NCBI GenBank assembly: GCA_000165345.1
Contig: CM000430.1
Coordinates: 160,001-224,000 of the forward strand
Length of the DNA: 64,000 nt
Reading direction: 5' to 3'
Under the pieces are notes generated by a model. That model saw nothing but the letters and a program-made list of their open reading frames with translations, was not told the DNA's origin and made no database searches. Positions 15,444 to 57,109 of the stretch are shown piece after piece (position 1 is the first letter of the stretch; each line of letters starts with the position of its first letter). Position numbers and translations under genes: made by a program.

Positions 15444-15528
15444 CGCCAGAGTTTTGTATTGTCTTTACCTTTTGTCCTCTTAATTCCACCTTTTTACTAG
15501 CAATTCTATTGACTAAAGAAAACAAGTG

Positions 15529-15546
15529 TTGGCGCCTTATGGCGGC
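15529..15546. promoter_or_regulatory. GGCGCC plus GGCGGC composite (TTGGCGCCTTATGGCGGC) in the 228-bp bidirectional BUB3/alpha-SNAP promoter
   Basis: Part of a 50-nt GC island (15529-15578) that also carries TGGGTTTGTGGG and a GTGCAC palindrome. Confidence 0.5.
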
Positions 15547-15671
15547 ACACTGGGTTTGTGGGACCCGTGCACTTGTTAGGGTAGTAAGGTAGAGAATAAA
15601 GGAGAAGGTTGAAAAAGAGATAATTGAAGATTTTGTATTGTATTACGAGCTTTAACTGTTGATGATTTGAT

Positions 15672-16682: not shown

Positions 16683-16783
16683 CTTAAATTATATTTCCCC
16701 TAAATCTAAATTAAACTTTGATTCTACATTAAGAAAAAGGTATAACTCAGTCTCTAAACTCAGTTTAACGGTACTTTTTGCCA

Positions 16784-18376: not shown

Positions 18377-18461
18377 TTGATAAAATACTGTTACCTCTCA
18401 AATTAATTGTTATTGGTGAATTTCTAATTGACAATTCTTATCCCGGCGATGTAATTTAAAG

Positions 18462-18477
18462 TTTGGGCGGGAAAATT
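18462..18477. promoter_or_regulatory. E2F site TTTGGGCGGGAAAATT about 90 bp upstream of Sam50 exon 1
   Basis: Full E2F consensus. Its position relative to the inferred exon-1 ATG supports the spliced model. Confidence 0.55.
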
Positions 18478-19051
18478 GCAGTCAAAAAATACACATGGAA
18501 AAATGGTAATGATAAACTGAGCAAGATATTAAAAAGAGATGGATTTTTTGAGGGAGGTAAGTTAAAGAAAGTAAAATTGATATTTATTGGGCTGGTTAAT
18601 CTGGAATATGATTTAGAAATATTACTCCTCCAGAAAGTTTGAGAACACCACAATACAAACTCATTTAAATGGGTACGTTAAGAATATTACTAGATTTTTT
18701 GACTTAATTTTCAGCTAATATAATAAATATCTAAAAATGGTTAAAGAGTTTCAATAATTTTTTTTTCTTTCCCAAATACTCCTGAAAATAGATCATTTGA
18801 AAGTATTGAATTTACTGAAGAAATATTGGCAAATGTAGATAATATAAATGGGATAATGACAAAGAATATAAAAATATCACCAAATGATCCATTATGCACA
18901 ATAACTTTAAGAAATGGAGTAAAAGAAGTAATAAAAAGCCATATAGGTGGAGAATTGACTGAGATAAATATGAAAATAAAAAATATTAATGGTGAATGTA
19001 AATCTTCTTCTTGGATTGCTATAATAACTAATTCTAAATACTAATAAATGA

Positions 19052-20152
19052 CTATTTCGTAATCTTCATCATATTATTTTGGTATGTAAAGAAGTAATCT
19101 TGATCAGTAGGTCTTGTAGTAGCTTTTTGAAGTTCTCCATAAACGACTTTAGCATCAAATTTGGGATCATTAAGCCTTCCTAACCTGATCATAGCTTCAT
19201 TCTTCTCCTTGAAATCTTTCTTGACAATTGTATTAGGCATATCAAATTCTGTATTCCACATTACTCTACCCTGAAATACTGTGACTCTAAATCCTTCTGA
19301 AACCTTTAATCTTGTTTCATGATCATGACTAAATTCACTAATTACATGCTCCCTAAGGCTTTTAATATCTTTGAATCCGAAAACTCTTGGACCTGTTTCA
19401 TATTTTGAAGATGCATCCAATAATAAATATGTAACATTGGTTTTATCTTCGCTTGCTTGAGAGTAAAATGCAAAGCACCTTCCTCTAGAAATGATTGCAA
19501 GAATGGAATATTTTGGTGAATAATAACTTAGAATTTCATTAAATGCTTCATCAACTGTAACAGAAAGTCCATCCCTATGTAACTTCATGATTTGTAAATC
19601 AGGATTTGACTTATATTCTTTAATTATATCAGAAGTCTCTCTTCTTTCTTTGGCCGCTTCGAATATTTTTTGAATACTTTTTTCTGTAGTAACTAATCCA
19701 TATTCGTTCTTAATACCCCATAATAAGCAGGCAAATTGTCTTTGTGTTTCAGTGATAATTGGTATTCCATATTCATAGGGGACCAAAATATACCACATAA
19801 TGCTTTTACTTTGTTTTGAGAGAGTTTCCACATTTTCCGTTTCGTTTTCATTAATTCCAAATTTATTTGCTATTTCAATACTTGCAATGCTAGTTCTTGT
19901 GGTTGTAGAATATGACGAGATATTGATTTTAATTTTTTTTTCACTTCTAGATCTAGGAGCGCAACATTGCATAAAAGGTCGTAAAAAAAGCTGAATAGGA
20001 GAAAGAGCCTCCTCTTTAACTATTCTTTGTGGTGGCTTTTTGCATCTTGGGTCGTTTACTAATATAAAAGAATCAAATGAAAGTCCTTCAGAAAAAGAAT
20101 ATTCATCTCTAAAAGCGTCATACTGTGGCTTTGATGCTGTTGTAACTGACAT
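19052..20152 (-). CDS. MINDY-family (FAM63/DUF544) deubiquitinase-like protein
   Basis: IMWYILVPYEYGIPIITETQRQFACLLWGIKN resembles the MINDY catalytic-Cys region (VKWIQWKEENTPIITQNENGPCPLLAIMN). No other confident domain. Confidence 0.4.
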   Translation of the reverse strand: MSVTTASKPQYDAFRDEYSFSEGLSFDSFILVNDPRCKKPPQRIVKEEALSPIQLFLRPFMQCCAPRSRSEKKIKINISSYSTTTRTSIASIEIANKFGINENETENVETLSKQSKSIMWYILVPYEYGIPIITETQRQFACLLWGIKNEYGLVTTEKSIQKIFEAAKERRETSDIIKEYKSNPDLQIMKLHRDGLSVTVDEAFNEILSYYSPKYSILAIISRGRCFAFYSQASEDKTNVTYLLLDASSKYETGPRVFGFKDIKSLREHVISEFSHDHETRLKVSEGFRVTVFQGRVMWNTEFDMPNTIVKKDFKEKNEAMIRLGRLNDPKFDAKVVYGELQKATTRPTDQDYFFTYQNNMMKITK

Positions 20153-27269: not shown

Positions 27270-28139
27270 ACTTTGCAATATAAGATTAAGAAAGTCCATT
27301 AGACGTTAGAATTTTAATTCGGCCTACCTTATTTTGAAGAAAGTTGTAGATAATACTTTCTCTCTAATACACTTAATAGATATTTGTAATACAAACACAA
27401 TATCTAAGCTAAATATTTACAAATGCATAAAGAAGTCTAGTTATACTAATCAACTTTTCCCTAACTTTAAATCTACTCAAAAACTCTCTACTAAATACAA
27501 TTCAATCATACAAAAAAAAACACACACAATACCTCATTCATTTTAAAAATGACTTAGTGTTATTCTGATTGTGATATTTTCATTTGTAACTAACGATTAA
27601 TATGATAATCATATACTCCATTTTATTGAATTCGATTTCTATTATAGTTTAGCGCTTTTCAACATTCAAAAGAACTTGTCAATCATTTTGAACTAATAGA
27701 AGGAATAACCACAAGCCTTAGAAATTACAGAAAGCATTGGAATAAGCTGACTCGATACCTGTAACCTTTATTGTTACATTGGATGAGTTAAAACAAGACA
27801 CATCCGATATTTACTGAGGTCATATCCTCAATGCTATAAACTCATTCCTGTACTTATTTGGACTGTTTGGTTCTTCCTCATTCTACTAATACTCTTTAGA
27901 ATGAATAAGATGATAAATATAGCAATTCTTAGCAGTAATTTGGAAGAGTAAGGAAGAAGAGGAGGAGCAATTAGATATAATATTACAAGGCATTCCAACC
28001 AATTTCTTGGCAGTTCGCTATACCTTGTTGCAATCAGCTCAGCTTTGAATAACAAAAGGTAAAATTGAGCCAAACATTTTCTTCATCTACAAATTATTGC
28101 TTTAAGATCGATGAAACATTAGAGCAACAAAAAATCCAA

Positions 28140-28589
28140 TTACTTGGAAAGCATCATCTTAGTGAACTCCTCGTACATAATCTGACCGTCACCATCAACG
28201 TCAGCTTCTCTAATCATTTCATCGACTTCTTCGTCAGATAACTTCTCACCCAAATTTGTCATTACGTGTCTCAATTCAGCTGCAGAAATAAAGCCATTGC
28301 CATCTCTATCAAATACCTTGAATGCTTCAATAAGTTCATCTTCAGTATCAGTATCCTTCATTTTTCTAGCCATAAGACTTAAAAATTCTGGGAAATCGAT
28401 TGTACCATTACCATCAGCATCAACTTCATTAATCATATCAAGCAACTCAGCTTCAGTCGGATTCTGTCCAAGAGATCTCATTACAGTTCCCAACTCCTTT
28501 GTAGTAATGCTACCATCACCATCCTTATCAAAGAGTGAGAAAGCTTCCTTGAATTCTGCAATCTGTTCTTCAGTTAATTGTTCTGCCAT
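28140..28589 (-). CDS. CAM: Calmodulin
   Basis: 149 aa with four EF-hands ([48 protein letters not shown]), about 90% identical to apicomplexan and animal calmodulin. Confidence 0.97.
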
Positions 28590-28931
28590 TTTCTAGATTC
28601 TCTTAGATTACAGTAAAATAATAGGAATATAAATATAACAAAAAGATTTCAATACCAAATAGTACCTATTTATTTGCAGAAATATAACTCTTGGCTTTCA
28701 AAAAAAAGATTAAAGAGTTTATTACTTCAAATATTAAATTATCTATGTATATGAAATTGGAGTATTATATATTTCCAAAAAAAATAATAATAAATTTTAG
28801 GGAAAAATTTATTATTTACATATATATTATTTTCTTGGATTTTATTAATTTATTAATTCTTTAATTGGGTTCTTATATACATGAATTAGTAATTATGGAT
28901 AGGTGTGTGAATCACGTCTTGTCCCCGCAAA

Positions 28932-28945
28932 TTTTAGGCGGGGGG
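28932..28945. promoter_or_regulatory. E2F-like TTTTAGGCGGGGGG upstream of calmodulin
   Basis: sequence. Confidence 0.4.
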
Positions 28946-29464
28946 TCGTGCAGGTTGAGAAATCTATACCTTGGAAAAATTAAATATATAAAAAATATGC
29001 TTGAACAATAATGCTTGATGAAGATTCAATTACATCTCCCAACTTGGAATATTTAGCAAAAAACAAAAAAGGAACATTTAGTCGAATCAGCCTCTCAAGT
29101 ATCTCAGAACTACGGTAAAGAACAAGAAATGCGAGAAAATACGTTAAAAATACTTAAATATTCGTTATCTCTAATGGTAGCCATTAATAGAAATTTAAAT
29201 GTCAAAATAGCACTTTTTTTGAACTAGGAATACGCTAGCTACTATTTAAACTAGTTAGATTAAAATTATTCCCGGTAGAGGTGAGTTTGAACGTGTTATA
29301 AAAGAATAATGATAGGGTGGTGATCGTCGTATTAATCTATGAAGTTTTGAAATAGCTTCATGAACGAAGTATTGCACATAGGAGCTTCTCCTAATGTATC
29401 CCCAAGAAAAAAAAAAGTTAATATGACTCAGACCTTGTGAAAATTGAGTGGTTCCTGAAAAGTC

Positions 29465-29803
29465 TCAAGCTCCGTGTATCTTTATTTCGTCAGAATTAAC
29501 AATATTCTCTCCAACTAGGAACCTAGCTACGTTGTGTCGATGATCTCCCTGAATTTGAAGAATTGGTCCATGCTCTGGGTCATCAATTATTGTTCCATTA
29601 CAGCTGAAGTTTTTCTTGAAAGCTTTTAATAACCTTTTTAAGTCAAACTCAGCGCTGAGTCCCTGTACAGTTGTTAAACTCTTCTTGCCATTACGTTGTT
29701 GGTTTCTTATGTGAACGTAGCCAGAGGAGCTCTTTCCAACTTCTGATAGTGCGTCTACGACAAACGGTGTGGGAATTCCAACCGTATCTGAAGATGAGGC
29801 CAT
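29465..29803 (-). CDS. SUI1: Translation initiation factor eIF1 (SUI1)
   Basis: 112 aa. YVHIRNQQRNGKKSLTTVQGL...FSCNGTIIDDPEHGPILQIQGDHR is the SUI1 family core. Confidence 0.93.
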   Translation of the reverse strand: MASSSDTVGIPTPFVVDALSEVGKSSSGYVHIRNQQRNGKKSLTTVQGLSAEFDLKRLLKAFKKNFSCNGTIIDDPEHGPILQIQGDHRHNVARFLVGENIVNSDEIKIHGA

Positions 29804-29913
29804 ACAATTAAACTTGAACTTTTAAGCAAAAATTGCCTTGCAATAATTATTTATCCATTTAAAAGGATAAAAAAAGGAGACGCGGCCATTTATACCGCCA
29901 AGTAATATTTTGA

Positions 29914-29927
29914 GGGCTGGCGCCCGC
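29914..29927. promoter_or_regulatory. GGCGCC-containing GC box (GGGCTGGCGCCCGC) about 115 bp upstream of eIF1
   Basis: sequence. Confidence 0.45.
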
Positions 29928-30561
29928 AATATAAACTTTCCAAGTAATGTCTACTATAATAATATCCTTTAAGATAAGTTTTGGGTGGGGTGTGTCGAGG
30001 GGGGAAGATATGTGCGTAAAAAAGTAAGAAACAGTACAAAATTTAAATATAATAATATTGGTATTAATCATTTTATTTTCGTAACTACTCTGAGCAAATA
30101 ATTGCCACTGTCAAATTTTTGTATAAATATCAATTTACTGCCTCCCAACTTTTTTCTTTTATTTCTGATAGTTGGCGCTGCCGACGTTTTAACTTAATAG
30201 CTAGGCATTAAATTAAATTAAATTTTGAAATATATTCAAGGAATGTTTGAAAGAATTCCCTTTCATTGTGTTTAACATAATTTTTTTATTGCTACAATCG
30301 TGTGGCTTGTATTTGAGCACCCCAAAATCTTACCTATTCAAGGGATTCCCTGTCATTTTAAGAACACTGGCCTCTGCAGTTTTTTTTAGCAGATTCATGA
30401 TTGTATATAAAGATAGTAATAGGTAAGAGTAGATATATCGTTACTATTATAAAGTTTGCTCGACTGTTTAACTTTGATTTGTACTACTCTTTGTCCGGTT
30501 AGAAATCTTTTTTCCTAAATACGATAATTTATTGGTTTTGCATCGAAAATTATAGTAAGGA

Positions 30562-43507: not shown

Positions 43508-44638
43508 ATGAAATTCCCAAATACATTAGAAATTAAGGAAAAGATTTCAAAAAGAGTATTTAATGCAAAATACAAAAGCCAGGACGTTGTGCTTAAATTA
43601 TTTACACCTGACGATTTGGATGGCTGTGCCGCCCAAATAAAACATGTTTTCGATGAGTATGAAGGCACAGATTGTGATTACTTGGAAACATCATTGGATG
43701 ACAGAGTTTTATATTGTATAAATATACATTATTTAATCCAAAGAAAGCTAGGGATATCCATGACATCAGAATATTACCGCAAAGATATGCAGGAATGGGT
43801 TTTTGAAACGATTGTAGATGGTCAAAGAGATTATTTAGAATCATCTCTGTCCGAAGAAAACAGATCTAGAACTAGCAAAGATATGAAAAATTCTTTCATA
43901 CAGCTGATTCATGTTTTTGGTGTGAGATTTGATCAGAAATCTCAAGTTTTTACTTCCCAGGATCAATTTATTGGCCTCATTTTTCCTAAGTTGGGGCAGC
44001 CATTGATGAATTTTGCACAAAACCAAAGATGGGTTCCAAATCCCATTTATCTATCTTCCGTCTTTAGTGATGAATTGTCTATTGCTCATATCTTCAAGGA
44101 TGTTGTAAAATCTGCTTTATTTCTTTTAAGAGAGTTGAATATTGTCCATAAAGATATTAAGATCGAAAATATATGCACTGTATTAGACAACCCAGAATCA
44201 AATAAAATACATCCTATAATAATTGATTTTGGTGAATCTCAGATTCTAAGTAATAATGGAATGCTCAGAGACGCATATGGGACTCATACAATGCTACCTC
44301 CAGAAGCATTTACATATTCATTTTGTTCTCACAATGATGAAAATTATATGGGTTATTCTGCTGAAAAAAGAGAAGTTTGGACTCTCGGCTGTTTATTGCA
44401 TACTCTAGTTTTTGGTTATCCCCCTTATTTTGATATATTCTCAAAAAAATCTCCCATAGAATTTCAGTTGAAACTGTGTGATGAAAGCATTACTATTGAT
44501 ATTCCTACCTACTCAAGTGTGCTAAATGCAGATATCTCACACAATTTGAGAAACCTCCTTAGTAGTATACTAGTCAAAGCCCCTAATAATAGACTTTGTC
44601 TTGAAAATATTTTATTACATCCATGGCTCCAACCCTAG
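43508..44638 (+). CDS. Atypical Ser/Thr protein kinase with a degenerate glycine-rich loop
   Basis: Catalytic loop HKDIKIEN, DFGES, GTHTMLPPE (APE-like) and EVWTLGCLLHTLVFGYPPY (subdomain IX) are present. The N-terminal lobe lacks the GxGxxG loop. Confidence 0.6.
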   Translation: MKFPNTLEIKEKISKRVFNAKYKSQDVVLKLFTPDDLDGCAAQIKHVFDEYEGTDCDYLETSLDDRVLYCINIHYLIQRKLGISMTSEYYRKDMQEWVFETIVDGQRDYLESSLSEENRSRTSKDMKNSFIQLIHVFGVRFDQKSQVFTSQDQFIGLIFPKLGQPLMNFAQNQRWVPNPIYLSSVFSDELSIAHIFKDVVKSALFLLRELNIVHKDIKIENICTVLDNPESNKIHPIIIDFGESQILSNNGMLRDAYGTHTMLPPEAFTYSFCSHNDENYMGYSAEKREVWTLGCLLHTLVFGYPPYFDIFSKKSPIEFQLKLCDESITIDIPTYSSVLNADISHNLRNLLSSILVKAPNNRLCLENILLHPWLQP

Positions 44639-44814: not shown

Positions 44815-44829
44815 TTGGCGCCATACGTG
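44815..44829. promoter_or_regulatory. GGCGCC box (TTGGCGCCATACGTG) about 150 bp upstream of INS paralog 1
   Basis: sequence. Confidence 0.45.
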
Positions 44830-44971: not shown

Positions 44972-47900
44972 ATGATTAATAATTCACAGGAACTGGTTCA
45001 AAAAGTGGATGACATTGTACTTCCAGAATGTGAAGATAGAAAGTACAGAGCTTTAGAGCTTAAGAACGGTCTAACAGCCTTTTTAGTATCAGATAAGGAA
45101 ACTAAAACAAGTGGATGCTGCCTTACAGTCTACATTGGAGCTATGTACTCTCCTAAAAATTTAAATGGATTGGCACACTTTTTAGAGCATATGTTATTCT
45201 GTGGAACAAAAAAATATCCGAACGTGGATGAATATCAAAAATTTATTGCAAGCCATGGAGGAAAGAGGCATGGATCTACTACAAGATCAACTACAACATA
45301 TTACTTTGAAATAAAAAATAATGCTTTTAATGAAGCATTGGATAGATTTTCTTCATTCTTTACAGAACCATTGTTTTGCAAGGATATGACAGAAAAAGAG
45401 GTTTCTGCCATTGAAAATGAGTTCCATCTTAAATATCACAGTGATGAAAGAGTTAGATTCCATTTACTTGGTCAATTGTCAAACAAATCACATCCTTTGA
45501 ATTGTTTTACTACCGGGAATAAAGAAACTTTGGAATTCAAACCCAAAAAATTGGGAATCAATCTCCATTCTGAACTTTTAAAGTTCTACTCTTCCTATTA
45601 CAGCAGTAATATTATGTCAATTATTCTTTATGGAAAAGAAGATCTAGACACATTGGAAAAGTATACTATTGAATATTTTTCAAAAATTCCAAATCACCAA
45701 GTTAATTGTTTTGATTATACAAAGATTTTCATGGAAATTCCTCCTTATACAAGAGAAACTTCAATTGGAAAAATTATTAAGTTAATACCTTATGAAACTG
45801 ACAAAAGATTAAAAATCTACTTCCCACTTCCTCCTTTAGACAAATATAACGATAGTTGTGCTCCTGCTTATATTGCAAACATTATTGGACATAAAGGTGA
45901 AGGAGGAATATCATCAATATTAAGAGCTAAAAAACTTGCTACTGGTGCTTCTTTTGCTATTACTAATGAAGATCCATGTGCACTAGCTCAGTTTGGGGTT
46001 GTTCTAACTGATGAGGGGTATAATAATATTGGACAAGTATTGGAAATCATTTTCAACTTTTTAGTATTATTTAAGGCAACACCTGTTATTCCAGAACTAG
46101 TTGATGAGTTTATTGGGATTACTAGAGCAGGTTTTACTTATCAACCCAAATTCTCAATTCGTGACTTATTCTCATTACCAGCAAAGTATCTCAAATACAA
46201 ATGTAAATTTGAAGAAATCCTCTCTTCCGGTTTTGTTGTGAAAAAATTTTCACAAGATGATGTATTCTCTATTTTGGAATACTTAAGTAATGACAATTTT
46301 TTTATCTTACTATCTTCGCAAGCAATTGAGGAGGAGTATAAGAAAAATCAAGAAAACTTTATTGTTGAACATTATTATGGAACAAAATATAGTATTTCAG
46401 AACTAGATGAAGATTTGCTTTCAATAATTAATTCCTCCTCACCAGAAAAGGCTTTAAAACTTGGGTTAATTTTGCCAAAGCCGAATCAATTTGTATCAAC
46501 AGATTTCTCAATATTAAACCCACAAAAGGTTTGTGTTAATGATTACTTGAGAATTCCTGAGCTTCTAAATTTTGATGAATTGAAAGCTCAAGGTAATACC
46601 GATTCTTACAATATTCATTCACATCCTTTAAATATTTGGTTTAAACCAGATTCAACCTTTAATTCTCCTCATTCATTAATCAATATGAGATTAGTTGCTG
46701 AGAGAATTCTAGAATTTAAAGAAAACTCATCTTTTGAGAAATTGTCAAATTTTTCAAATGAATTAGTTTTCCAAGTATTTGGTGAAATCTTAAATGAAGT
46801 TATGTATAGAAGTATGCATGAGCTTTCTTCAGATATATTAGCAGCAAGTTTATCTTATACAATTAATTTCAATTCTAGAACAAATGTATTTGTTTTACAA
46901 GGATTTGGACTTTCTCACAAATTAAATTATTTGATTTCAATAATGTTCGAGAAATTATATCATGGAACAGAGGTTAGAAAATATTATGATGAAGCCATAT
47001 TAATTATAAGCAAAGATTGGAAGAATAAGATAATAAAACCAAATTTGACTTCACTTTCACTAGAATGTATCTCAGAATCTTTGTCACCTTTTTTCTTCAA
47101 TCGTCAAGAAAAATTAAATGTTTTGGAATCATTTACTTTTGAATTGTTTTGTTCTATAAGACAACACTTTTTATCAAACTGTAGACTTGAAGGGTTAATT
47201 ATGGGTAATTTTTCAGAACCAAATGCAAAGTGTATTTCAATACAACATTGGAAAAATTTGATAAATTTCCAGAATTCTGTTAAAAATGAAGTAAAATCTT
47301 GTGGAATAAAAGTAGAACAATTTTCAATTGTTAATTTAAAAAAGGATATTTATACTTTAAATTATATTCCAAATAGTTCGGACAAAAATGGATGTTGGAT
47401 GTTGAGTTTCTTCCTTGGAGAGTATAATTTGAGGAAACAAGTCCTATGTGATTTGATTTTACCGTTTGTCTCAAGTGAAGCTTTTGCTGATCTCAGAACT
47501 AATCAACAACTAGCTTATGTTGTTAGAGCTACACAGATATTTTCTTCTCCTGCAATTATTATTGGATACTATTTACAATCATCTGAGTATACTAATGCTC
47601 TAACTCTTGAGAGGCTTTTAGAGTTTCATATAAACAAAACAAAAGTGGAACTAAAAAGTAAATTGAATAAGGAAATGTTTATAAAATTGAAGGATTCCAC
47701 AATTCAAACCCTTTCATCAAATCCAAAAAGTATCTTTGATGAGTATAAGACTTATCTTCATGAGATTAATGAAAGATCATATTTATTTGATATAAGACAA
47801 AGGAAAATAGATATATTAAATAATGTACAATACAATGAATTTATTGAATTTTATGATAGTATATGGACTTCAAACTCCGTATTAACAGAAATAAGATCTC

Positions 47901-48052
47901 AAATAGATGATACTAAGAATTCTGGTGTGGGTTCTGAATATAAAGATCCATCTATTCCAGAAGGATATTTAAAATTGGAGTCAATTACTCAGATTTCAAG
48001 GAACAAAAATACACCCATGATTTCGCTGGAAGATAAACTAAAGAATTTGTAA
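44972..48052 (+). CDS. INS: Insulinase-like M16A metallopeptidase (INS family), paralog 1
   Basis: Inverted zinc-binding motif HFLEHMLFCGTKKYP and downstream ENEFH glutamate. The four-domain, about 1000 aa architecture is typical of insulysin. No signal peptide. Confidence 0.85.
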   Translation: MINNSQELVQKVDDIVLPECEDRKYRALELKNGLTAFLVSDKETKTSGCCLTVYIGAMYSPKNLNGLAHFLEHMLFCGTKKYPNVDEYQKFIASHGGKRHGSTTRSTTTYYFEIKNNAFNEALDRFSSFFTEPLFCKDMTEKEVSAIENEFHLKYHSDERVRFHLLGQLSNKSHPLNCFTTGNKETLEFKPKKLGINLHSELLKFYSSYYSSNIMSIILYGKEDLDTLEKYTIEYFSKIPNHQVNCFDYTKIFMEIPPYTRETSIGKIIKLIPYETDKRLKIYFPLPPLDKYNDSCAPAYIANIIGHKGEGGISSILRAKKLATGASFAITNEDPCALAQFGVVLTDEGYNNIGQVLEIIFNFLVLFKATPVIPELVDEFIGITRAGFTYQPKFSIRDLFSLPAKYLKYKCKFEEILSSGFVVKKFSQDDVFSILEYLSNDNFFILLSSQAIEEEYKKNQENFIVEHYYGTKYSISELDEDLLSIINSSSPEKALKLGLILPKPNQFVSTDFSILNPQKVCVNDYLRIPELLNFDELKAQGNTDSYNIHSHPLNIWFKPDSTFNSPHSLINMRLVAERILEFKENSSFEKLSNFSNELVFQVFGEILNEVMYRSMHELSSDILAASLSYTINFNSRTNVFVLQGFGLSHKLNYLISIMFEKLYHGTEVRKYYDEAILIISKDWKNKIIKPNLTSLSLECISESLSPFFFNRQEKLNVLESFTFELFCSIRQHFLSNCRLEGLIMGNFSEPNAKCISIQHWKNLINFQNSVKNEVKSCGIKVEQFSIVNLKKDIYTLNYIPNSSDKNGCWMLSFFLGEYNLRKQVLCDLILPFVSSEAFADLRTNQQLAYVVRATQIFSSPAIIIGYYLQSSEYTNALTLERLLEFHINKTKVELKSKLNKEMFIKLKDSTIQTLSSNPKSIFDEYKTYLHEINERSYLFDIRQRKIDILNNVQYNEFIEFYDSIWTSNSVLTEIRSQIDDTKNSGVGSEYKDPSIPEGYLKLESITQISRNKNTPMISLEDKLKNL

Positions 48053-48293
48053 TACATACTTTATTTGCAGGTTATAATACTGTATAATTTCTTAAAATTA
48101 ACACACTCAATAATGAGATTGCAAAAAATTAGTTCAAGACTAAGTAATTTAATTACATTATTTTAAAAAAAAGTCACATAAAAAACACAAAATAGTCAGT
48201 TTCGATTCAAAATTTGTAAATTATTTTTTTTATTTTATTTTTGTATCTGAATATTTGTTATTTCATCCGATAAAGGAAATTATTGCAATTTTG

Positions 48294-48308
48294 AAATGGC
48301 GGGAACAT
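48294..48308. promoter_or_regulatory. E2F-like AAATGGCGGGAACAT about 175 bp upstream of INS paralog 2
   Basis: sequence. Confidence 0.45.
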
Positions 48309-48477
48309 TCAAAATGTTATGTGGGTTAATAGCACAAATATCTGGGAAAAATGTCAAAAGGGGGGGTAATTTTTGTATAGAAATTAGGCATAAAGATAAA
48401 AATAAAATAATCTGAAAACCAAGAAAAGAAAAAAGAGACACGAGGAAATTATTTTTTCAGAGATTTAAATAGAATAG

Positions 48478-51400
48478 ATGACAGAAATAAAGACGAATTT
48501 AAAAGAAATTCAGAATGAAATAACGAAGCCAATTTATGATGACAACAAATATAGAGCTCTGGTATTGAAAAATAATTTGAGGGTATTATTGGTTCAGGAT
48601 GAGAATACGGATATTTCAGGAGCAAGTATGTCAGTATTTGTTGGTTGTCAGCAAGATCCTGAAGAACTGAATGGCCTTGCCCATTTTTTGGAGCATATGT
48701 TATTTTTAGGCTCAGCCAGACATCCAAACCCTAGTGATTTTGATGACTATATGAAATTGAATGGAGGGAGTTCAAATGCATTCACAGATAATTTGTCAAC
48801 ATCTTACTTTTTCGAAATAAAAAATGAGTCATTTGAGCATGCATTAGACTTATTTTCTGCTTTTTTTATATGTCCTTTATTTGATACAAAGTATGTAGAT
48901 AGGGAAGTTAATGCAGTAAACAGTGAGCATAACAAAAATTTGTTATCAGATTTATGGATAAGATATCATGTAATTTCTTCAATAGCTAGGAATGGGCATC
49001 CATTGAGAAAGTTTGGTACTGGAAGTATAGAAACATTAAAATATGAGCCAGAAAAGAAAGGAATTGATTTGATTGCAGAACTGAAGAATTTTCATAATAA
49101 ATATTATAGTTCAAATAATATGTTTCTTACTTTGGTTTCAAATTGTGATCTTGATGAGCTTGAGAGTTATGCAATAAAGTATTTTTCAGAAATAGTTGAT
49201 AAGAATATTGCTCGTGTTGATTATTTTGGTGAATTCCAAAAAGAAAGACCATATTTAAGTATTATGGAATCTCCAGAAGATGGTGCTCTTGAGTCAATGG
49301 TATATGTAATACCTAATAAAGATGAAAAAAAAGTATCTTTTAATTTTCAGATTCCTGATTTACGTAAATTTAGAAAAGGACTTCCTGAAATGTATTTTAC
49401 AAATATTTTAGGACATGAAGGGCCAGGAAGTTTGACTTCAGCTTTGAGAAGAAATGGTTGGTGTCTTGCTCTAAGCAGCGGATTAAATGAAATGTATTCC
49501 GCTAATTTGTTTGAAATAATAATAACTTTAACAGAGAAAGGTGCAAGAGAAGTTTTGAGTGTTATTGAATACACATTAAATTTTGTGAATTTGGTTATAA
49601 AGAATGAAATAGATATGGAAGTAGTTTCAGATCTTGAAAAACTTTCTCAGCTTGTCTTTGATTATAGAAATAGACCAAGTCTAGATGAAACTATAAGTAA
49701 TAATGTATTTGCTCTTGCAAATTTACCTCCTCTAAAGGAACTTCTTACTTTTGGGAATAGAGTTGAAAAAATGGATGTAGATGCAGTAAAATATCTTAAA
49801 CAATATTTTGATCCCAAGAATATGTTTATTTTACTTTCAATTCCGGAAAATAAAGCTCTTATTGAAGATGAAAGACTTAAAGATAAATTAATTTATGACA
49901 GACATTATAATATAAACTATTTGAAGTTAGAGTTTGGACCAGAAATTAAGGAAATTATCTCTAATATAAGTCTTTCTAATGCTAGCAGATTTGGACTCAA
50001 AATGCCAACAAAAAATAATTATATTCCAGAGAATTTTGACTTAATGAACACGTATGGCGGCAACATGCAGGCATTCCCCACAATTTTGGAGATTCCTGGA
50101 AATTCATTTAGTGACAGAGTGGTTGCATATTATAAGCCTGATACAAATTTTCAAACTCCACACGGTTTTTCTCAATTCTTTTTCTTCTCATCAAGTAAGG
50201 TTACATGTGAATTACTTGTTCTTGATACTTTGACATCTTTAACATTAAGTAAATTTGTTGCAGAAGAGGCTTATAATGCAACCATTGCCAATTTAGACTA
50301 TAAGATTTCGGGTGGGTACAATTTAAGAAATTCAATGAATTGTTTATCTATCACAATTTCTGGTTTTAATGATAAAATGCACACATTATTAAAGTTTTTG
50401 ATCAAATCTCTAGTTGAACTCAAAAATGATGGTAAAAAGCAACTATATAAATCATTCTTTGAAGATGCTCTGGAGGAAAGTAGACTATCAGTCAGAAACT
50501 CACTTTTTAATCCAGATATACTTGCCCATTTGACTTCGTATAATTTCAGGGAGTTTTATTCTGTTTATACTCCTTCAAAAGAGGAGATTTTATCTATATT
50601 AAGTACAACTACATACGAAAGGTTGTGTGATCATATATCAACATTTTTCTCACAGTGTTTGATAAAATCGATCACAGTTGGTAACTTAAATAAGGAACAA
50701 GCACGAGAACTTGTTGAAACTGTGACTATCAAGGAATTGTTATCGTCTGAACAACTAAATTCTAAAATGGAAAAGACTATCATTAGAAACTGCATAGATT
50801 TGGAAAAAGCAATAGAATCAGATCCTGAAATAAAATCCAATAGGATCATTCTATCTAAGTCTGTGATAAACCCAATGGATAAGAATGGTTCAGTTATATA
50901 TTCAATTGATATGGGAGAGTACAATTTAAGAAACTACGTTCTTTTGGAGCTGTTGTCAAAATATTTGGATTCAAATTGCTACTTAGAACTTCGTACAAAT
51001 CAACAATTAGGGTATATTGTGCATGCATGTAGCTATAATTTAAAGCCAGCTATTGGTATTTATGTTTGTGTTCAGTCTTCAGACTTCAGTAATTCTCATG
51101 TTATAAACCGCATTCATAATTTACTTGATGATCTTTTGGTCGTAAAATTATCGGAAAAGCTTGATGAGGATCAGTTTAACATTTTAGTGGATTCTGAAAT
51201 TAAGATTTATTCAAACAAACCAAAAAATATTAAAGAGGAAGTTGCTCAATACTTGACAGCAATCACTAATGGAGAGAGCAATTTTGATTGGAAAGACAAG
51301 TCCATTAAAATTCTTGAAAATTTAACTTATCAAGAATTCTGCTCTTTTGTTACAGATCTAATCAGTAGGCCAAGGACTATTGTACAATCTGTATCAGCCT

Positions 51401-51519
51401 TGGACGCCAGCAAAAAATGTGAAGATGTGGCTAATGATTTTGTTCCAAATGGATTTATAGTTATCAAAGATTTCAAACATTTTAGAAATACTGACGCACT
51501 ACTTAACATAACTATATAA
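48478..51519 (+). CDS. INS: Insulinase-like M16A metallopeptidase (INS family), paralog 2; a diverged tandem duplicate of the upstream gene
   Basis: HFLEHMLFLGSARHP, NSEH..N. It is co-linear with paralog 1 (YRALVLKNNLRVLLVQD vs YRALELKNGLTAFLVSD; C-terminal LRTNQQLGYIV vs LRTNQQLAYVV). Confidence 0.85.
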   Translation: MTEIKTNLKEIQNEITKPIYDDNKYRALVLKNNLRVLLVQDENTDISGASMSVFVGCQQDPEELNGLAHFLEHMLFLGSARHPNPSDFDDYMKLNGGSSNAFTDNLSTSYFFEIKNESFEHALDLFSAFFICPLFDTKYVDREVNAVNSEHNKNLLSDLWIRYHVISSIARNGHPLRKFGTGSIETLKYEPEKKGIDLIAELKNFHNKYYSSNNMFLTLVSNCDLDELESYAIKYFSEIVDKNIARVDYFGEFQKERPYLSIMESPEDGALESMVYVIPNKDEKKVSFNFQIPDLRKFRKGLPEMYFTNILGHEGPGSLTSALRRNGWCLALSSGLNEMYSANLFEIIITLTEKGAREVLSVIEYTLNFVNLVIKNEIDMEVVSDLEKLSQLVFDYRNRPSLDETISNNVFALANLPPLKELLTFGNRVEKMDVDAVKYLKQYFDPKNMFILLSIPENKALIEDERLKDKLIYDRHYNINYLKLEFGPEIKEIISNISLSNASRFGLKMPTKNNYIPENFDLMNTYGGNMQAFPTILEIPGNSFSDRVVAYYKPDTNFQTPHGFSQFFFFSSSKVTCELLVLDTLTSLTLSKFVAEEAYNATIANLDYKISGGYNLRNSMNCLSITISGFNDKMHTLLKFLIKSLVELKNDGKKQLYKSFFEDALEESRLSVRNSLFNPDILAHLTSYNFREFYSVYTPSKEEILSILSTTTYERLCDHISTFFSQCLIKSITVGNLNKEQARELVETVTIKELLSSEQLNSKMEKTIIRNCIDLEKAIESDPEIKSNRIILSKSVINPMDKNGSVIYSIDMGEYNLRNYVLLELLSKYLDSNCYLELRTNQQLGYIVHACSYNLKPAIGIYVCVQSSDFSNSHVINRIHNLLDDLLVVKLSEKLDEDQFNILVDSEIKIYSNKPKNIKEEVAQYLTAITNGESNFDWKDKSIKILENLTYQEFCSFVTDLISRPRTIVQSVSALDASKKCEDVANDFVPNGFIVIKDFKHFRNTDALLNITI

Positions 51520-51887
51520 ATAGAACATCTTTTTTTCTCGCTCTTCCTTTTTAGCTGGACAAAATTACTTATAAATCACCATGCAGACTTAAACAGACAA
51601 GTTAAATCAACATTAGAACAAAATACTGGCACTTATGAGATTTACATCATACGTATCTATTTCAGACTAATTTAAATTCAAATATCTGTATATTCACAAG
51701 TTAAGAAATTTATTTGACAAGGACTACTTATTAAGAAAAAGATAACTAGTTTAGAATCATTAGAAATGTAGATCAACAATTATATTATCTCATTGGAGAA
51801 AACAATTTTTTAAAAATTTCTTCATTTTTTTATGAATTTACTATCATTTTGACAATTTTAATTAGAATTTTTAAAGGATATTTGCAA

Positions 51888-51902
51888 TTTAGGCGGGAAG
51901 TG
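51888..51902. promoter_or_regulatory. E2F-like TTTAGGCGGGAAGTG about 165 bp upstream of the mucin-like gene
   Basis: sequence. Confidence 0.45.
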
Positions 51903-52060
51903 AAAAAACGACATAAATACTTACTATAGAGGAAACAATAATGGAGGAATAATATTAAGATAAAATAGCAAAAGTAAATCTTTTAAGTATATAATAGGTT
52001 AAAAGTAATTTTAAATACTAATTATTTGGAACATTTTGATGGGATTATCTAAGGATTACA

Positions 52061-55000
52061 ATGAATAAGTATCTACTTATTTACCATTTTTTCCTACAGG
52101 TGGTAATTCTATTATCAATTAATGGAATTTCATTAGGAAAAGAATCTGATTTGGTAGATAACGAGGAATGTGAAAATCCGGAGTATTTGTTTCCCTGGGG
52201 GAACGATTATCTTAATTCATGTTTGAGTTTTCAATGCCATAGGGTCCGAGAACATAAAAGTTGGTATCGCTTTTGGGAAAAAAAACCAAAATATGTTCAT
52301 AAAAATATTAATGGAAGTGAACGGGTGATACAATGTTCAGACTGTGAAGGTTTTTTAAAGAAAGGAGCTCTATTTGGTGGAATGTCAATTTGTACTCCAA
52401 TTGAGTTTGGTGGTAGTTTTGATATACCAAAAGGTTGGGTATCTATAGCTACTGCAAGCTTGCAATTAAATAAGGAAATTAAGAATAAAAGCTCAATTAA
52501 GTTAATTCCAGATAACTGGAGAATTGATGGACAGACTAAAAAGACAACCTTGGACTTGTCCGCTTGTTCCACTTCTGATGATTCTGAAGTAGCTTTATCT
52601 ATATTAGTAACTTTATCAAATATAGCCGAACCTTCCAGAAAGTCCTCAAAATATAGACGTATTTTGGGTCTTCATGATGATTCAATTAATGTGAGGATTA
52701 AAACTCTTGGAGTTGATATGGGAGACTCAGCGGATGGTTTTGACGATGATGATTTGGATGATGACTTTGATGACGAATTTGATAGTGAAGATGTTCAACA
52801 AAGCATGCAACCTGATAATGGGTATAATGAGTACTTTTTGTATGATATGAATAAATTAGCTTCAACACAGCATAGGGTACCTAGAGACAACCCATCCAAG
52901 GGCAAAAAAAATAAGCGAAAAGTAAGAAAGCAAAAACCATTTACTGGTGCAGAAAAACTCCCAAGAAAATGGAAACTTAGCAAAGGCCATGCTTCGATAT
53001 ATTCATCGTCCGATGTTGTGAGGCTTGATCTTGCTTCAGATATTCACCCCAATGAACTTGTCCAAGTTATTCTTACATGTAATAACAAATATATGAATTG
53101 CAATATCCAAGACTTTGTTTCGTGCTTCAATATTCTCTGTAGATCTGTAACCAAGGAAGAGCTTATTCGTAGAGCAGCTTTAATGAAAGCTAAACGGTTC
53201 ATTTCAAATTCTATTATTTCAGGTCAAGTAGTGCCTAAAATGGCTTATAACGGCATGCCATTTCAACCCGGTTTCCCGCCTGCTATTCCAGGGCCTTTCA
53301 ATGGTCAATTCCAGTATCCACATGCAAATAATATAGTAAATGGGAATTTCATACAAAGAAATTCAACTTTGCCTATTCAAGGAGTTTCGAGTGTAGGAGC
53401 AAATTATATTCAAAATAGGGGAAAAAATGGGATTGTTATGGTTAACAATGGAGTAGGAAAGCCTGCTGAAGTAAGTAACCAAGCTAACGTTTTTGTTGGA
53501 AATAATGATGGCGTACAAAATGTAAATATAAATACCAATACTAAGACTGCTGGAATTTCTAATATTTCCCTTCAGCAACCTCCTGCAAATGTTAAAACTT
53601 CTCAGAGTACCGCAGCATCAAAGGGTATTCAAATAATTTTTGTACCAGCACAGAGTCAAACGAATGCCCACTGCCAAAGCCAAACTAACATGGTTAATGT
53701 AAATAAAGCTGTGACTAAATCATCGTTAAAACAGAAAAAGCAAAAAACCTTCATAAGTCAAAACATCATTCCAAAGGAAAACACTAATATTCCAAATCAA
53801 ATTAATAATCCTCAAATACCTACACCAAAACAATCTAAGTCTCAAATAAACCAGATCGGAGTTTATGGCCCTGCTAATCACACCGTTGTTACCTCGTATA
53901 ACTCAAATGTATTAAACACTGATATTTATCAAACTTCCTCTGAGAAAAACTTGGAGAGTCAACCAACAACAGTTTGTATACTAGCTATGGAACCTAAAAG
54001 TGAATCTAAAGTAAATGTTGCGAGTTCAAACACAATTCAGCCCGTAGAACAAACTCAATTCAGCAATGTAAAACAAGATGTTACAGTAGTTTTTAATCCT
54101 ATAAATACAGTTACAAAAACCTCAAAAACTAGCAAACGCAATACTGTGAAACAAACAACAACTAAAACTCAAGCACCAACTTTAAATATTTTATTAGTTC
54201 CTAGTAAGACTGTTAAAAGAAAGAATAATTTCAAGAAAGTTTCTAAAGTCTCTAAAAACGAGGTTAAACATGCAAATAAAACAGTAGACATTATTTTGTT
54301 AAATAGTAATTTAAATCATAAACCTAAAAAGGCTGTTGATAAAAGTAATTCAGATTATATGGCTTTGAATACAAATAATGTCCTAAAACCTCCAAAAATA
54401 ATAACAGGCAAGATAACCTACAAATTGCCTAAAAAAATCAAGAAAAGTAGCAAATCAACAAAGCCAGAGTTTAATATTATAGATACCATAGTTTTAGAAA
54501 AGGTTGATAATAAGGAACCCAGAAACAAAATTGAAAAGTTAGTCCCTGTGGATAGCTCTTCTTTAAGTGATGAGAATATTTTATTATCAGATTCTGAAAT
54601 TAGTAGCCAATACATTTCTAGTAGCCAGAAGAAACATTCTAGACAGTCGCATAGCTCCCGTTCGAAGAATAAAGCTCATAGAAAGAAGTCCATAAAAGTT
54701 ATATCTCGAGAAGACGGAGCAACTGAAAACGTTCTGCTAGATTCCAACAAACATATTTCTAATTCCGATAATAAGGCTTCTTCGGTCAAAGTAGAAAAAT
54801 ATATTCTACATCCAGTTGGCACTTCAGAAAGTTCTGAGGACTCTGAAAGTTTTAGCGAATATGAATTTGGCTCGGAAGAAATTGGATATCTGAGTGATGA
54901 AGATTTCAGTGCCCTAATTCTGAAAAAAGTTAAAGATGATTCTGCAAAGTCAGATAAATCAGTGAAAACGGAGTCCAATTCTAAAGTCTCTATTCAGTCA

Positions 55001-55252
55001 CAGAAAACAAAAAACGAAGATGATGATCAAGTTAATGAGGAGATAAAGATCAAAAATATAGAAAAGAGTGAATCTAAAGTTGAAATAGAAAATAGCCCTT
55101 TAAGTGATTCTTCTGATTATGAAATTTTTACCAAACAAAAACATTATAATTACGAAACAAGAAGCACAATGAAGTCTATCTTGGGATATTCAATATTGAT
55201 CAGTGTTTTTCTGTTCATAGTGTTCATTATTATGAAACTACTCCTGCTTTAA
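52061..55252 (+). CDS. Secreted, membrane- or GPI-anchored mucin-like low-complexity glycoprotein, lineage-specific. Parts are a signal peptide, a Cys-containing N-domain, an acidic D-rich stretch, a Ser/Thr/Lys/Asn-rich body, and a C-terminal hydrophobic anchor
   Basis: N-terminal signal (LLIYHFFLQVVILLSINGISLG). C-terminal ILGYSILISVFLFIVFIIMKLLLL directly before the stop. Long T/S/K/N/Q/P-rich repeats (TVTKTSKTSKRNTVKQTTTKTQAPT). DDDDLDDDFDDEFDSED acidic block. Confidence 0.55.
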   Translation: MNKYLLIYHFFLQVVILLSINGISLGKESDLVDNEECENPEYLFPWGNDYLNSCLSFQCHRVREHKSWYRFWEKKPKYVHKNINGSERVIQCSDCEGFLKKGALFGGMSICTPIEFGGSFDIPKGWVSIATASLQLNKEIKNKSSIKLIPDNWRIDGQTKKTTLDLSACSTSDDSEVALSILVTLSNIAEPSRKSSKYRRILGLHDDSINVRIKTLGVDMGDSADGFDDDDLDDDFDDEFDSEDVQQSMQPDNGYNEYFLYDMNKLASTQHRVPRDNPSKGKKNKRKVRKQKPFTGAEKLPRKWKLSKGHASIYSSSDVVRLDLASDIHPNELVQVILTCNNKYMNCNIQDFVSCFNILCRSVTKEELIRRAALMKAKRFISNSIISGQVVPKMAYNGMPFQPGFPPAIPGPFNGQFQYPHANNIVNGNFIQRNSTLPIQGVSSVGANYIQNRGKNGIVMVNNGVGKPAEVSNQANVFVGNNDGVQNVNINTNTKTAGISNISLQQPPANVKTSQSTAASKGIQIIFVPAQSQTNAHCQSQTNMVNVNKAVTKSSLKQKKQKTFISQNIIPKENTNIPNQINNPQIPTPKQSKSQINQIGVYGPANHTVVTSYNSNVLNTDIYQTSSEKNLESQPTTVCILAMEPKSESKVNVASSNTIQPVEQTQFSNVKQDVTVVFNPINTVTKTSKTSKRNTVKQTTTKTQAPTLNILLVPSKTVKRKNNFKKVSKVSKNEVKHANKTVDIILLNSNLNHKPKKAVDKSNSDYMALNTNNVLKPPKIITGKITYKLPKKIKKSSKSTKPEFNIIDTIVLEKVDNKEPRNKIEKLVPVDSSSLSDENILLSDSEISSQYISSSQKKHSRQSHSSRSKNKAHRKKSIKVISREDGATENVLLDSNKHISNSDNKASSVKVEKYILHPVGTSESSEDSESFSEYEFGSEEIGYLSDEDFSALILKKVKDDSAKSDKSVKTESNSKVSIQSQKTKNEDDDQVNEEIKIKNIEKSESKVEIENSPLSDSSDYEIFTKQKHYNYETRSTMKSILGYSILISVFLFIVFIIMKLLLL

Positions 55253-55795: not shown

Positions 55796-57109
55796 ATGAT
55801 AGTAGATTTAGAATTATATCCTAAACAGTCACTCAGATTATTATTGTTTATTAATGAGCAAGAAAAACAAAGTAAGAAAAGTACAAAATTTCTGGAATAC
55901 TGTAATGAAGAGGAAGTAAAAGAATTCCAATATTTGGATGAAGAAGATAGAATAATTATATCTGAGAGCTTCAGGGAAGTGGTGAGAGCTGAAATTAGAG
56001 AGTATATTGATTTATACATGGAGCAGTACCAAGAACCATTAAATGATAAAGAAGCTTTGGATATTAATGAAAAGCAATATACAGTTTACGGGAATTTTCA
56101 ACTCTTCAATGAACAAAAAGACACTATTTTATGGGACCTACTAACATTATTGATATACCTAGATAGCATGAATCCACAAATATGGGATAGAAGGGCAGTA
56201 TTAATAGGAGAATTATTACAAAGAATAGGATTGGAATCTGAATATATGAGATTCTTAAGCAGTGAGTTAAATCTTACAAAGCTCGCACTATGTCATACCT
56301 TTAAGTATGGGGAAATCTGGAGTTATTTGGAGTACATATTAACTGAATACTATGAAAGAATTAAAGGAAACGAGTTTAAAAGTTTGAATAATGATGAAAT
56401 TATCAATTATGTTTTAAAAGATAATTTTGAGTTTATTTGTCTACAGATAGACTCCTATGAACACAACTACCATGCTTGGAGTTTAGTTAATTGGTTAATT
56501 TATGAATTAATCCCTACAATAATTTCATCAGATGATTCAAATAAGCCTTATAAATACAATGAAATCAGGATGATCGAAAGTTGGGTAATCAAATTATTAC
56601 AAAGACATCCATCTCATTATGGAGGTTACCATGCGCTTGTGAATCTGAATGAAAGCAAAATTAATTCACAAAGTAAATCAAATAAGCTCGAAGTATGCAC
56701 AGTAATAGGGTTAGTGTACCCAGAAGAAATTATTAATATGCTTAGAGTTATTATTGAGTGTTTTGATCATCATCTTATTAACTGTTTCTCAGTAATTCTA
56801 GGCTTCAGATATGCTAATTTCATGCTTTTGATTGATTCAGTAGATGAAAGATCTCATCTTGAAATTTTTGAAAACGAAATAATGTGGTTTCAAAAACAAG
56901 ATTTGGTTGAAAAAATGTCCAAGAGTCCGAAACATCTTGAAGAATTGAGAGAACACTTTTACTCCATTTTATCAGAGATATCAAGCTATAATTATAATAA
57001 AAGCATTATACAAAAATTCTACGACCTATTAGATTCAGAAATACAAATAATAAGGCAAGAATCAACGCTGTTTTACAATAGTGATTGTTCCTATAAAGGA
57101 CTGGTTTGA
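55796..57109 (+). CDS. Protein prenyltransferase alpha-subunit repeat (PPTA) protein, PTAR1-like or prenyltransferase alpha-like
   Basis: PPTA-like repeats: PQIWDRRAVLIGELL, EHNYHAWSLVNWLIYEL and HPSHYGGYHALVNL resemble the FNTA and RabGGTA repeats (NYQVWHHRRVLVEWL, NYHAWQHRQWVI). Confidence 0.45.
   Translation: MIVDLELYPKQSLRLLLFINEQEKQSKKSTKFLEYCNEEEVKEFQYLDEEDRIIISESFREVVRAEIREYIDLYMEQYQEPLNDKEALDINEKQYTVYGNFQLFNEQKDTILWDLLTLLIYLDSMNPQIWDRRAVLIGELLQRIGLESEYMRFLSSELNLTKLALCHTFKYGEIWSYLEYILTEYYERIKGNEFKSLNNDEIINYVLKDNFEFICLQIDSYEHNYHAWSLVNWLIYELIPTIISSDDSNKPYKYNEIRMIESWVIKLLQRHPSHYGGYHALVNLNESKINSQSKSNKLEVCTVIGLVYPEEIINMLRVIIECFDHHLINCFSVILGFRYANFMLLIDSVDERSHLEIFENEIMWFQKQDLVEKMSKSPKHLEELREHFYSILSEISSYNYNKSIIQKFYDLLDSEIQIIRQESTLFYNSDCSYKGLV

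Follow-up and report, generated by a model that had tools for sequence, protein, structure and literature searches.

Two insulysin-type peptidase genes and a gene for a predicted anchored sporozoite protein at the cgd2_920-cgd2_940 locus of Cryptosporidium parvum

Two tandem genes for insulinase-like M16 peptidases (INS), directly followed by a gene for a protein with signal peptide and membrane anchor, raise the question of whether such an arrangement represents a functional secretory or virulence-type neighbourhood. This arrangement is found at positions 44972-55252 of a 64,000-nucleotide stretch of chromosome 2 of Cryptosporidium parvum (GenBank assembly GCA_000165345.1, contig CM000430.1, positions 160,001 to 224,000, forward strand; hereafter the window), for which an earlier note, made from the sequence alone, had proposed such a neighbourhood, composed of two members of the INS expansion and a mucin-like glycoprotein. 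The reading favoured here, at a probability of about 0.7, is that of three independent, separately transcribed genes, two of which would code for cytosolic peptidases of the insulin-degrading enzyme (IDE) type and the third for an unrelated anchored sporozoite protein. Rather than a virulence cluster, this is an ordinary locus that was known before; its three genes are catalogued and one of them, INS4, has been characterised experimentally.

The window (~30 % G+C) is tightly packed with intron-less open reading frames (ORFs). Protein database matching showed the products of all three ORFs to be identical, residue for residue, to C. parvum proteins (lengths in amino acids, aa):

44972..48052, + strand: cgd2_920, INS3, 1026-aa four-domain M16A insulysin-type peptidase without signal peptide (exact match QOY43141 / EAK88923)
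48478..51519, + strand: cgd2_930, INS4, 1013-aa four-domain M16A insulysin-type peptidase without signal peptide (exact match EAK88861)
52061..55252, + strand: cgd2_940, 1063 aa (exact match EAK88860)

The name INS3 for cgd2_920 follows PMC8092296 and Table S2 of PMC5146892, and INS4 is cgd2_930 in published gene tables; the published quantitative PCR primers for cgd2_930 (PMC8074150) match once each within the second ORF (49272-49291 and 49407-49426).

The tandem peptidases INS3 and INS4

INS3 and INS4 are tandem paralogs of about 1000 aa, diverged and collinear as the earlier note had described them, sharing 29 % identity over their full length (E 6e-126). Each contains, in this order, the domains Peptidase_M16 (PF00675), M16_C (PF05193), M16_M (PF16187) and PqqF-like_C_4 (PF22456), all above the gathering cut-offs (E 1e-31 to 1e-7). 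Both align end to end to structures of human IDE (INS3, E 3e-83; INS4, E 2e-109), covering residues ~20-944 of the crystallised chain. The active-site elements locate as follows:

45176..45190, + strand: HFLEH of INS3, inverted zinc-binding motif (aa 69-73)
45398..45424, + strand: EVSAIENEF of INS3, with the distal zinc-ligand Glu (aa 150) assigned by alignment to IDE
48682..48696, + strand: HFLEH of INS4 (aa 69-73)
48904..48930, + strand: EVNAVNSEH of INS4, with the distal zinc-ligand Glu (aa 150)

In both proteins the distal Glu follows the first His by 81 residues and aligns with REVNAVDSEH of human IDE, in which the zinc ligands H108 and E189 are equally spaced. Retention of HFLEH and the downstream catalytic Glu in both paralogs, as originally noticed, was thereby confirmed, and HFLEH is kept in 22 of the 22 INS3/INS4 orthologues retrieved. 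For INS4, the motif is reported at the same residues in PMC8074150, where further studies on the putative peptidase activity are called for. Judged from their sequences, INS3 and INS4 display every sequence-checkable feature of M16A, the insulysin/IDE subfamily of MEROPS, i.e., HxxEH, the distal Glu within an (E)xxAxxxE motif and the four-domain chain. Each would form a clamshell zinc peptidase, the N-terminal domain carrying HFLEH and the distal Glu, and the C-terminal half closing a chamber that admits only short peptides.

The absence of an obvious signal peptide from both paralogs, which had been flagged as worth confirming, was checked by Kyte-Doolittle hydropathy and by inspection of upstream in-frame stops. 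The highest 15-residue hydropathy window within the first 75 aa reaches only 0.99 in INS3 and 0.81 in INS4, compared to 2.26 in cgd2_940, i.e., the peptidases possess no N-terminal hydrophobic segment, and no 19-residue window above 1.8 occurs anywhere in either protein. In-frame stops are located two (INS3) and zero (INS4) codons 5' of the ATGs, so that a hidden N-terminal extension is impossible. The N-termini of the orthologues are short and acidic, HFLEH being reached after ~63-75 residues, with the single exception of a metagenome gene call carrying an evident artefactual extension. SignalP-based literature likewise lists INS3 and INS4 without signal peptide (PMC8092296, PMC8074150), and the earlier statement is confirmed. 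A mitosomal role was also considered and rejected, the N-termini being acidic and devoid of a presequence. Since both proteins lack any signal peptide, they are most likely located in the cytosol of the parasite, where they would degrade short peptides.

The pair had been regarded as part of the INS expansion that marks host-interaction loci in Cryptosporidium. In a search of 5.8 billion proteins, both peptidases matched first their Cryptosporidium orthologues, INS3 in addition the INS4 clade, and next the canonical insulysins found in ciliates, oomycetes, plants, animals and yeast (Ste23); the secreted C. parvum INS paralogues were not among the best 120 matches of the INS3 and INS4 searches. 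In a neighbour-joining (NJ) tree with 16 sampled eukaryotic IDEs, the INS3 clade, the INS4 clade and the two together each obtained 200/200 bootstrap support, the last of which may be inflated, as NJ is prone to do on long branches; the tree was built without the other 20 C. parvum INS paralogues. All intestinal species sampled contain 1:1 syntenic orthologues of both genes, and the gene order kinase-INS3-INS4-cgd2_940-cgd2_950 is kept in a C. hominis-like contig, C. meleagridis and C. ubiquitum.

Ratios of non-synonymous to synonymous substitution rates (dN/dS; Nei-Gojobori, C. parvum versus C. hominis-like, C. meleagridis and C. ubiquitum) are, in this order, 0.13, 0.10 and 0.10 for INS3 and 0.10, 0.12 and 0.09 for INS4. 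They do not exceed 0.15 in any quarter of either gene, i.e., no fast-evolving region is present, and compare with those of the flanking genes for TCP-1 (0.08), the kinase (0.14-0.21) and cgd2_950 (0.12-0.17). Within C. parvum, the proteins differ by 0-4 residues. By these measures, INS3 and INS4 are old tandem duplicates under strong purifying selection, like the neighbouring housekeeping genes, and would have arisen by ancient tandem duplication of a eukaryotic insulysin (IDE/Ste23) gene.

Because their nearest matches outside the genus are canonical insulysins, their orthologues are 1:1 and syntenic, and dN/dS amounts to 0.09-0.13, both are assigned by sequence, within the Cryptosporidium M16 family, to a core of conserved, IDE-type members and not to the secreted subtelomeric INS expansion. 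Of the traits of the secreted group, neither a signal peptide nor copy-number variation or rapid divergence was found in the pair, the sole variation being the loss of INS4 in gastric species; as to subtelomeric position, the adjoining cgd2_940 is listed as lying elsewhere (Table S3 of PMC6532270). Two genes orthologous to cytosolic IDE and under no selection other than purifying had been given in the earlier note itself as an outcome against its proposal, and this is what the evidence favours, a cytosolic location being most likely. INS3 and INS4 should therefore not be counted as virulence candidates by family name alone, as membership in INS does not imply secretion. With respect to stage, INS3 is higher in macrogamonts and INS4 is expressed earlier (PMC8092296), so that the two copies would apparently be split between female gamonts (INS3) and zoites plus asexual stages (INS4).

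In the corresponding locus of the gastric species C. serpentis (JBHPOL010000044.1), INS3 and the cgd2_940 orthologue are present and INS4 is missing between them. Its place is taken by 6.2 kb (13052-19296; 23.7 % G+C) without long ORFs, in which an INS4 profile yielded two weak, collinear matches on the same strand (profile positions 702-760 at ~14045-14220 and 925-971 at ~14732-14870); both matches scored above all 100 block shuffles. The gap likely represents a decayed INS4 pseudogene, to judge from these relics. The remaining ~4 kb (21 % G+C) are of unexplained content. The INS3-like protein of C. serpentis (KAL7067188) clusters at no less than 90 % identity with C. muris EEA06453 (CMU_009450) and C. 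andersoni OII76043 (cand_007890), and the tree places the single gene of the gastric species with INS3 (clade support 200/200). For C. muris and C. andersoni, the tables of PMC5146892 and PMC6532270 contain one gene of the pair per species, CMU_009450 being entered under INS3 and cand007890 under INS4. This published orthology assignment is inconsistent; on the basis of clustering and tree, cand_007890 / CMU_009450 is the INS3 orthologue, an assignment that tidies the literature tables. That gastric species keep INS3 alone of the pair is a minor new point. Modestly new are thus the decay of INS4 in gastric species together with the orthology correction, and a gregarine homologue of the cgd2_940 head, described below.

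The third gene, cgd2_940

The third ORF had been described as a Ser/Thr-rich, mucin-like protein with signal peptide and C-terminal anchor. The latter two features are supported by hydropathy, which amounts to 2.3 at aa 6-20 and stays above 1.9 between aa 1036 and the C-terminus. From its sequence, cgd2_940 is a fast-evolving, anchored protein of the secretory pathway that is not mucin-like in composition, with the following predicted architecture:

52061..52138, + strand: predicted signal peptide, aa 1-26, MNKYLLIYHFFLQVVILLSINGISLG (hydropathy; AlphaFold2 helix 3-24; 'Yes' in Table S3 of PMC6532270)
52169..53230, + strand: conserved Cys-containing, beta-rich head, aa ~37-390 (orthologue alignments)
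52706..52945, + strand: acidic low-complexity insert within the head, aa 216-295 (short GATGATGAATTT repeat at 52745-52783)
53231..55150, + strand: poorly conserved, predicted-disordered stalk, aa 391-1030 (~640 aa)
55151..55249, + strand: conserved C-terminal hydrophobic anchor, aa 1031-1063, transmembrane (TM) helix or glycosylphosphatidylinositol (GPI) signal

Compositionally, Ser accounts for 11.9 %, Thr for 5.4 % and Pro for 4.4 % of cgd2_940. Its Ser+Thr content (17.2 %) lies within the range spanned by all ORFs of the window that reach 250 aa (22 ORFs, 10.5-20.9 %), its richest 50-aa window reaches 34 % Ser/Thr compared to 46 % in two other, ordinary ORFs of the window, and no run of Ser/Thr exceeds three residues. 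The description as Ser/Thr-rich and mucin-like was accordingly abandoned. The stalk contains 29 % Lys+Asn+Gln, 19.5 % Ser+Thr and 5.3 % Pro, and almost no conserved columns among 12 orthologues. In the same alignment, ten Cys of the head are invariant (54, 59, 92, 95, 111, 169, 340, 347, 355 and 360). The acidic insert is far shorter in gastric species, and GATGATGAATTT represents the sole tandem repeat of the protein. Residues E1032, K1038, G1042 and Y1043 of the anchor are invariant, and hydrophobicity extends to the very C-terminus without a cytoplasmic tail. G1042-Y1043-S1044 at the start of the hydrophobic stretch, invariant or nearly so, fits an omega site and equally a helix-packing motif.

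The divergence of cgd2_940 is unevenly distributed: dN/dS amounts to 0.07-0.16 in the head, 0.50-0.60 in the stalk and 0.35-0.38 overall, and identity to the C. ubiquitum orthologue is 51 %. The gene is among the 49 'highly divergent' genes of PMC6532270 (Table S3: 56 % identity to chipmunk genotype I, signal peptide, no paralogue, not subtelomeric).

No Pfam match and no sequence relative in the PDB were found for the head. When 1.84 billion representative proteins were searched exhaustively with a profile, only one protein was retrieved besides the Cryptosporidium orthologues, namely EP00923_P050550 of the archigregarine Selenidium pygospionis (E 1.2e-5). This protein has its own signal peptide, aligns collinearly to both halves of the head (BLASTP 5e-10 and 9e-9) and shares nine of the ten Cys (CLxxxCHxV, CxxCxG, CxP, TCxxxxCNxxxxSCFxxxC). 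It differs by an identity of only 24 % and by the absence of acidic insert, stalk and anchor from its 369-aa, possibly incomplete, transcript model. Since nine Cys are kept in this remote homologue, the head domain predates the genus and is not Cryptosporidium-specific. AlphaFold2 models are of low confidence, with mean predicted local distance difference test (pLDDT) scores of 40 for the C. parvum N-terminus (12 sequences) and 37 for full-length C. muris protein (14 sequences). In both models the head is rich in beta structure, parts of it at pLDDT 60-75, and the C. muris model further displays a disordered stalk (pLDDT ~27) and a C-terminal helix (pLDDT ~80). Foldseek comparison of the C. 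muris model to the PDB gave weak jelly-roll matches to capsid proteins and legume lectins (E ~1e-3, TM-score 0.3-0.5, root-mean-square deviation 7-10 Å), which are a hint at such a fold and not a fold assignment.

Expression is highest in sporozoites, with log2 counts per million (CPM) of 13.8 versus 8.4 at 24 h and 8.6 at 48 h, i.e., ~40-fold higher mRNA levels than in culture, and of 9.3 in sorted asexual versus 8.1 in female stages (supplements of PMC6877471). Non-expression of this ORF, which the earlier note had named as an outcome that would speak against it, hence does not apply. No papers were found under the alternative identifiers Chro.20103-5, CMU_009440, cand_007880 and CPATCC_000852.

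In the mechanism proposed here, cgd2_940 would enter the secretory pathway by its signal peptide and be kept in the membrane by the C-terminal TM helix or GPI anchor. A disordered stalk of ~640 residues, able to vary freely, would carry the conserved beta-rich head with its stabilising disulfides. As its mRNA is stockpiled in sporozoites, its most likely site of action is the surface of the zoite or the membrane of a secretory organelle, in the phase of extracellular life or of invasion. A role at the surface or the host interface is plausible, and cgd2_940 is a reasonable candidate for it. It represents an abundant sporozoite transcript for a presumably anchored protein that would combine an old, constrained head with a rapidly changing stalk. 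A more far-reaching possibility, to which we attach little probability, is that the head defines an undescribed extracellular domain family of Cryptosporidium and gregarines, possibly jelly-roll and lectin-like, which, exposed on the surface of sporozoites by a variable stalk, would be an adhesin for a host glycan or host receptor; cgd2_940 would then be an unstudied, abundant invasion-stage antigen.

Promoter motifs, rival readings and neighbouring genes

E2F-like promoters had been assigned to each INS paralog. Such boxes are indeed found 155-180 bp upstream of the ATGs of all three genes:

44815..44823, strand unassigned: E2F-like box TTGGCGCCA with palindromic core GGCGCC, 155 bp 5' of the INS3 ATG
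48297..48305, + strand: E2F-like box TGGCGGGAA, 180 bp 5' of the INS4 ATG
51891..51899, + strand: E2F-like box AGGCGGGAA, 169 bp 5' of the cgd2_940 ATG

A meaning specific to the locus did not stand. GGCGCC occurs 11 times in the window compared to 0.6 expected, nearly always in intergenic regions and often between divergent genes (e.g., at 8800, 9990, 13562, 15531, 20356, 39068, 55673 and 57184), a placement that fits E2F-like boxes serving bidirectional promoters. Of the 39 GGCGSS sites, 31 fall into the ~30 % of the window that is non-coding, before most genes. The clusters in which E2F-like motifs are over-represented upstream comprise 2,379 genes and follow no particular pattern of expression (Oberstaller et al., PMC3734150). 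The E2F-like box is the commonest promoter motif of C. parvum, generic and with nothing specific to this locus.

Several points weigh against the reading as two cytosolic peptidases and an unrelated anchored protein. Next to the bootstrap support possibly inflated by long branches and the low-confidence AlphaFold2 models, absence of a signal peptide is no proof of a cytosolic role: human IDE is partly secreted by an unconventional route, demonstrating that M16A enzymes can exit cells in this manner. Most directly, antiserum to INS4 lowered the parasite load at 24 h by 36 %, and the authors propose a dense-granule location and a role in invasion (PMC8074150); if this is correct, INS4 would need to exit without a signal peptide. 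In the view of the CpINS-4 group, INS4, and possibly INS3, would be a secreted invasion protease that leaves its store, dense granules or rhoptries, by a route either unconventional or dependent on a prodomain and processes parasite or host proteins at entry. The peak of the cgd2_930 transcript at 2 h post infection agrees with this view, as does a rhoptry homology suggested by an earlier proteomics paper (both PMC8074150). The polyclonal antibody of the same study stains the middle of sporozoites and merozoites, a pattern that fits the cytosol equally well, the 36 % inhibition stems from whole antiserum and is weak, and the several fragments observed for native and recombinant INS4 were seen in E. 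coli too. Since none of the 22 orthologues has a signal peptide or N-terminal extension, upstream coding room is lacking, the closest relatives outside Cryptosporidium are insulysins of the cytosolic type, and dN/dS is ~0.1 without any fast-evolving region, secretion of INS4 for invasion is considered unlikely.

The proposed neighbourhood, in which INS proteases would be placed beside a mucin-like substrate or partner under shared control, draws on adjacency and common strand of the three genes, on the E2F-like boxes of all three, on the order kept in intestinal species and on the fast evolution of cgd2_940. However, the boxes are generic and the entire region is syntenic, so that conserved order is not special here. 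As the neighbours (TCP-1, kinase, prenyltransferase-alpha-like protein) are of housekeeping type and the published stage profiles differ (INS3, macrogamont; INS4, early and asexual; cgd2_940, sporozoite), there is no sign of a co-regulated neighbourhood. The INS pair without signal peptide and cgd2_940 in the secretory pathway would not meet, and the loss of INS4 beside an intact cgd2_940 in C. serpentis speaks against an obligate partnership. With the pair being conserved and IDE-type and the third protein not mucin-like, the neighbourhood is already largely refuted and highly improbable. A related proposal would make cgd2_940 by itself a true mucin-type O-glycoprotein, its stalk densely O-GalNAc-modified despite modest Ser/Thr. 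Head, long disordered stalk and anchor do resemble membrane mucins, the stalk reaches 19.5 % Ser+Thr, and the protein is a sporozoite-expressed one of the secretory pathway, O-GalNAc glycoproteins being known from sporozoites (PMC5549699). Ser+Thr at window background, short Ser/Thr runs, low Pro and the dominance of Lys+Asn+Gln in the stalk argue to the contrary. Additionally, cgd2_940 appears in PMC6532270 in Table S3 only and is absent from Table S2, which comprises invasion-associated genes including mucin-type glycoproteins. Looked for by its gene ID, cgd2_940 does not occur in the supplementary files of the O-GalNAc glycopeptide study, which is at most a weak argument as other identifiers may be in use there. 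For the same reason, no conclusion is drawn from the absence of the gene IDs of the locus from the sporozoite-vesicle proteome. A mucin-type nature of cgd2_940 is thus quite doubtful, and the reading as three independent genes is retained.

Directly upstream of INS3, cgd2_910 (43508-44638, + strand) codes for a divergent protein-kinase-like protein with a Pfam match limited to the C-terminal half of the kinase domain (profile 96-263). It is strongly female-enriched (log2 CPM 4.5 asexual versus 8.8 female, log fold change +4.3; supplement 4 of PMC6877471) and adjoins the macrogamont-enriched INS3. Downstream of cgd2_940, the 437-aa product of cgd2_950 (55796-57109, + strand) matches the protein prenyltransferase alpha-subunit repeat (PF01239) below threshold (25.6 bits versus a cut-off of 29.5) and may represent a divergent prenyltransferase alpha subunit. 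A minus-strand ORF of 100 aa within cgd2_940 (54676-54978) was judged spurious on account of its TTG start and its antisense position inside a conserved coding sequence. Elsewhere in the window, ~3 kb (27300-30500) are free of long ORFs in a crude map (at least 150 aa, ATG start) and harbour G/C-rich boxes TTAGGCGGGGGG and GCTGGCGCCCGC at 28937/29919; a gene with introns or one for an RNA may be located in this stretch. Scanning the cgd2_920-cgd2_940 region for Rfam families, tRNAs and tandem repeats yielded nothing relevant besides the short acidic repeat in cgd2_940.

Comparison with known systems

INS3 and INS4 share with the M16A insulysins human IDE and yeast Ste23 the four-domain order, HxxEH with the distal Glu 81 residues on, a length of ~1000 aa and the absence of a signal peptide, and their N-termini begin where the cytosolic IDE core begins. 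Identity to IDEs outside Cryptosporidium is 26-28 %, compared to ~39 % of those IDEs with one another. Unlike IDE, they exist as two copies, apparently partitioned by stage, instead of one, and their C-termini (KLKNL and LNITI in INS3 and INS4) carry no peroxisomal tripeptide.

The secreted Cryptosporidium proteases INS1, INS6, INS15/16 and INS19/20 as well as the Toxoplasma toxolysins TLN1 and TLN4 belong to the same M16 family, and the 22 C. parvum INS genes are listed together, INS3 and INS4 included (PMC8092296, PMC12688253). The secreted proteases are, however, characterized by signal peptides, often subtelomeric position, variable copy number, frequent absence of domains or HxxEH and location in secretory organelles, none of which is true of INS3 and INS4; CpINS-4 and CpINS-6 share 15 % identity (PMC8074150).

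Compared to the mucin-type glycoproteins gp900, gp40/15 (GP60) and the CpMuc/MVP cluster (cgd2_390-450), cgd2_940 is distinguished by a conserved Cys-rich globular head, the absence of Ser/Thr-rich tracts, its single-copy and non-subtelomeric gene and its absence from their catalogue, while in common with them it has a signal peptide, is anchored at its C-terminus as gp15 is, is expressed in sporozoites and diverges rapidly between species.

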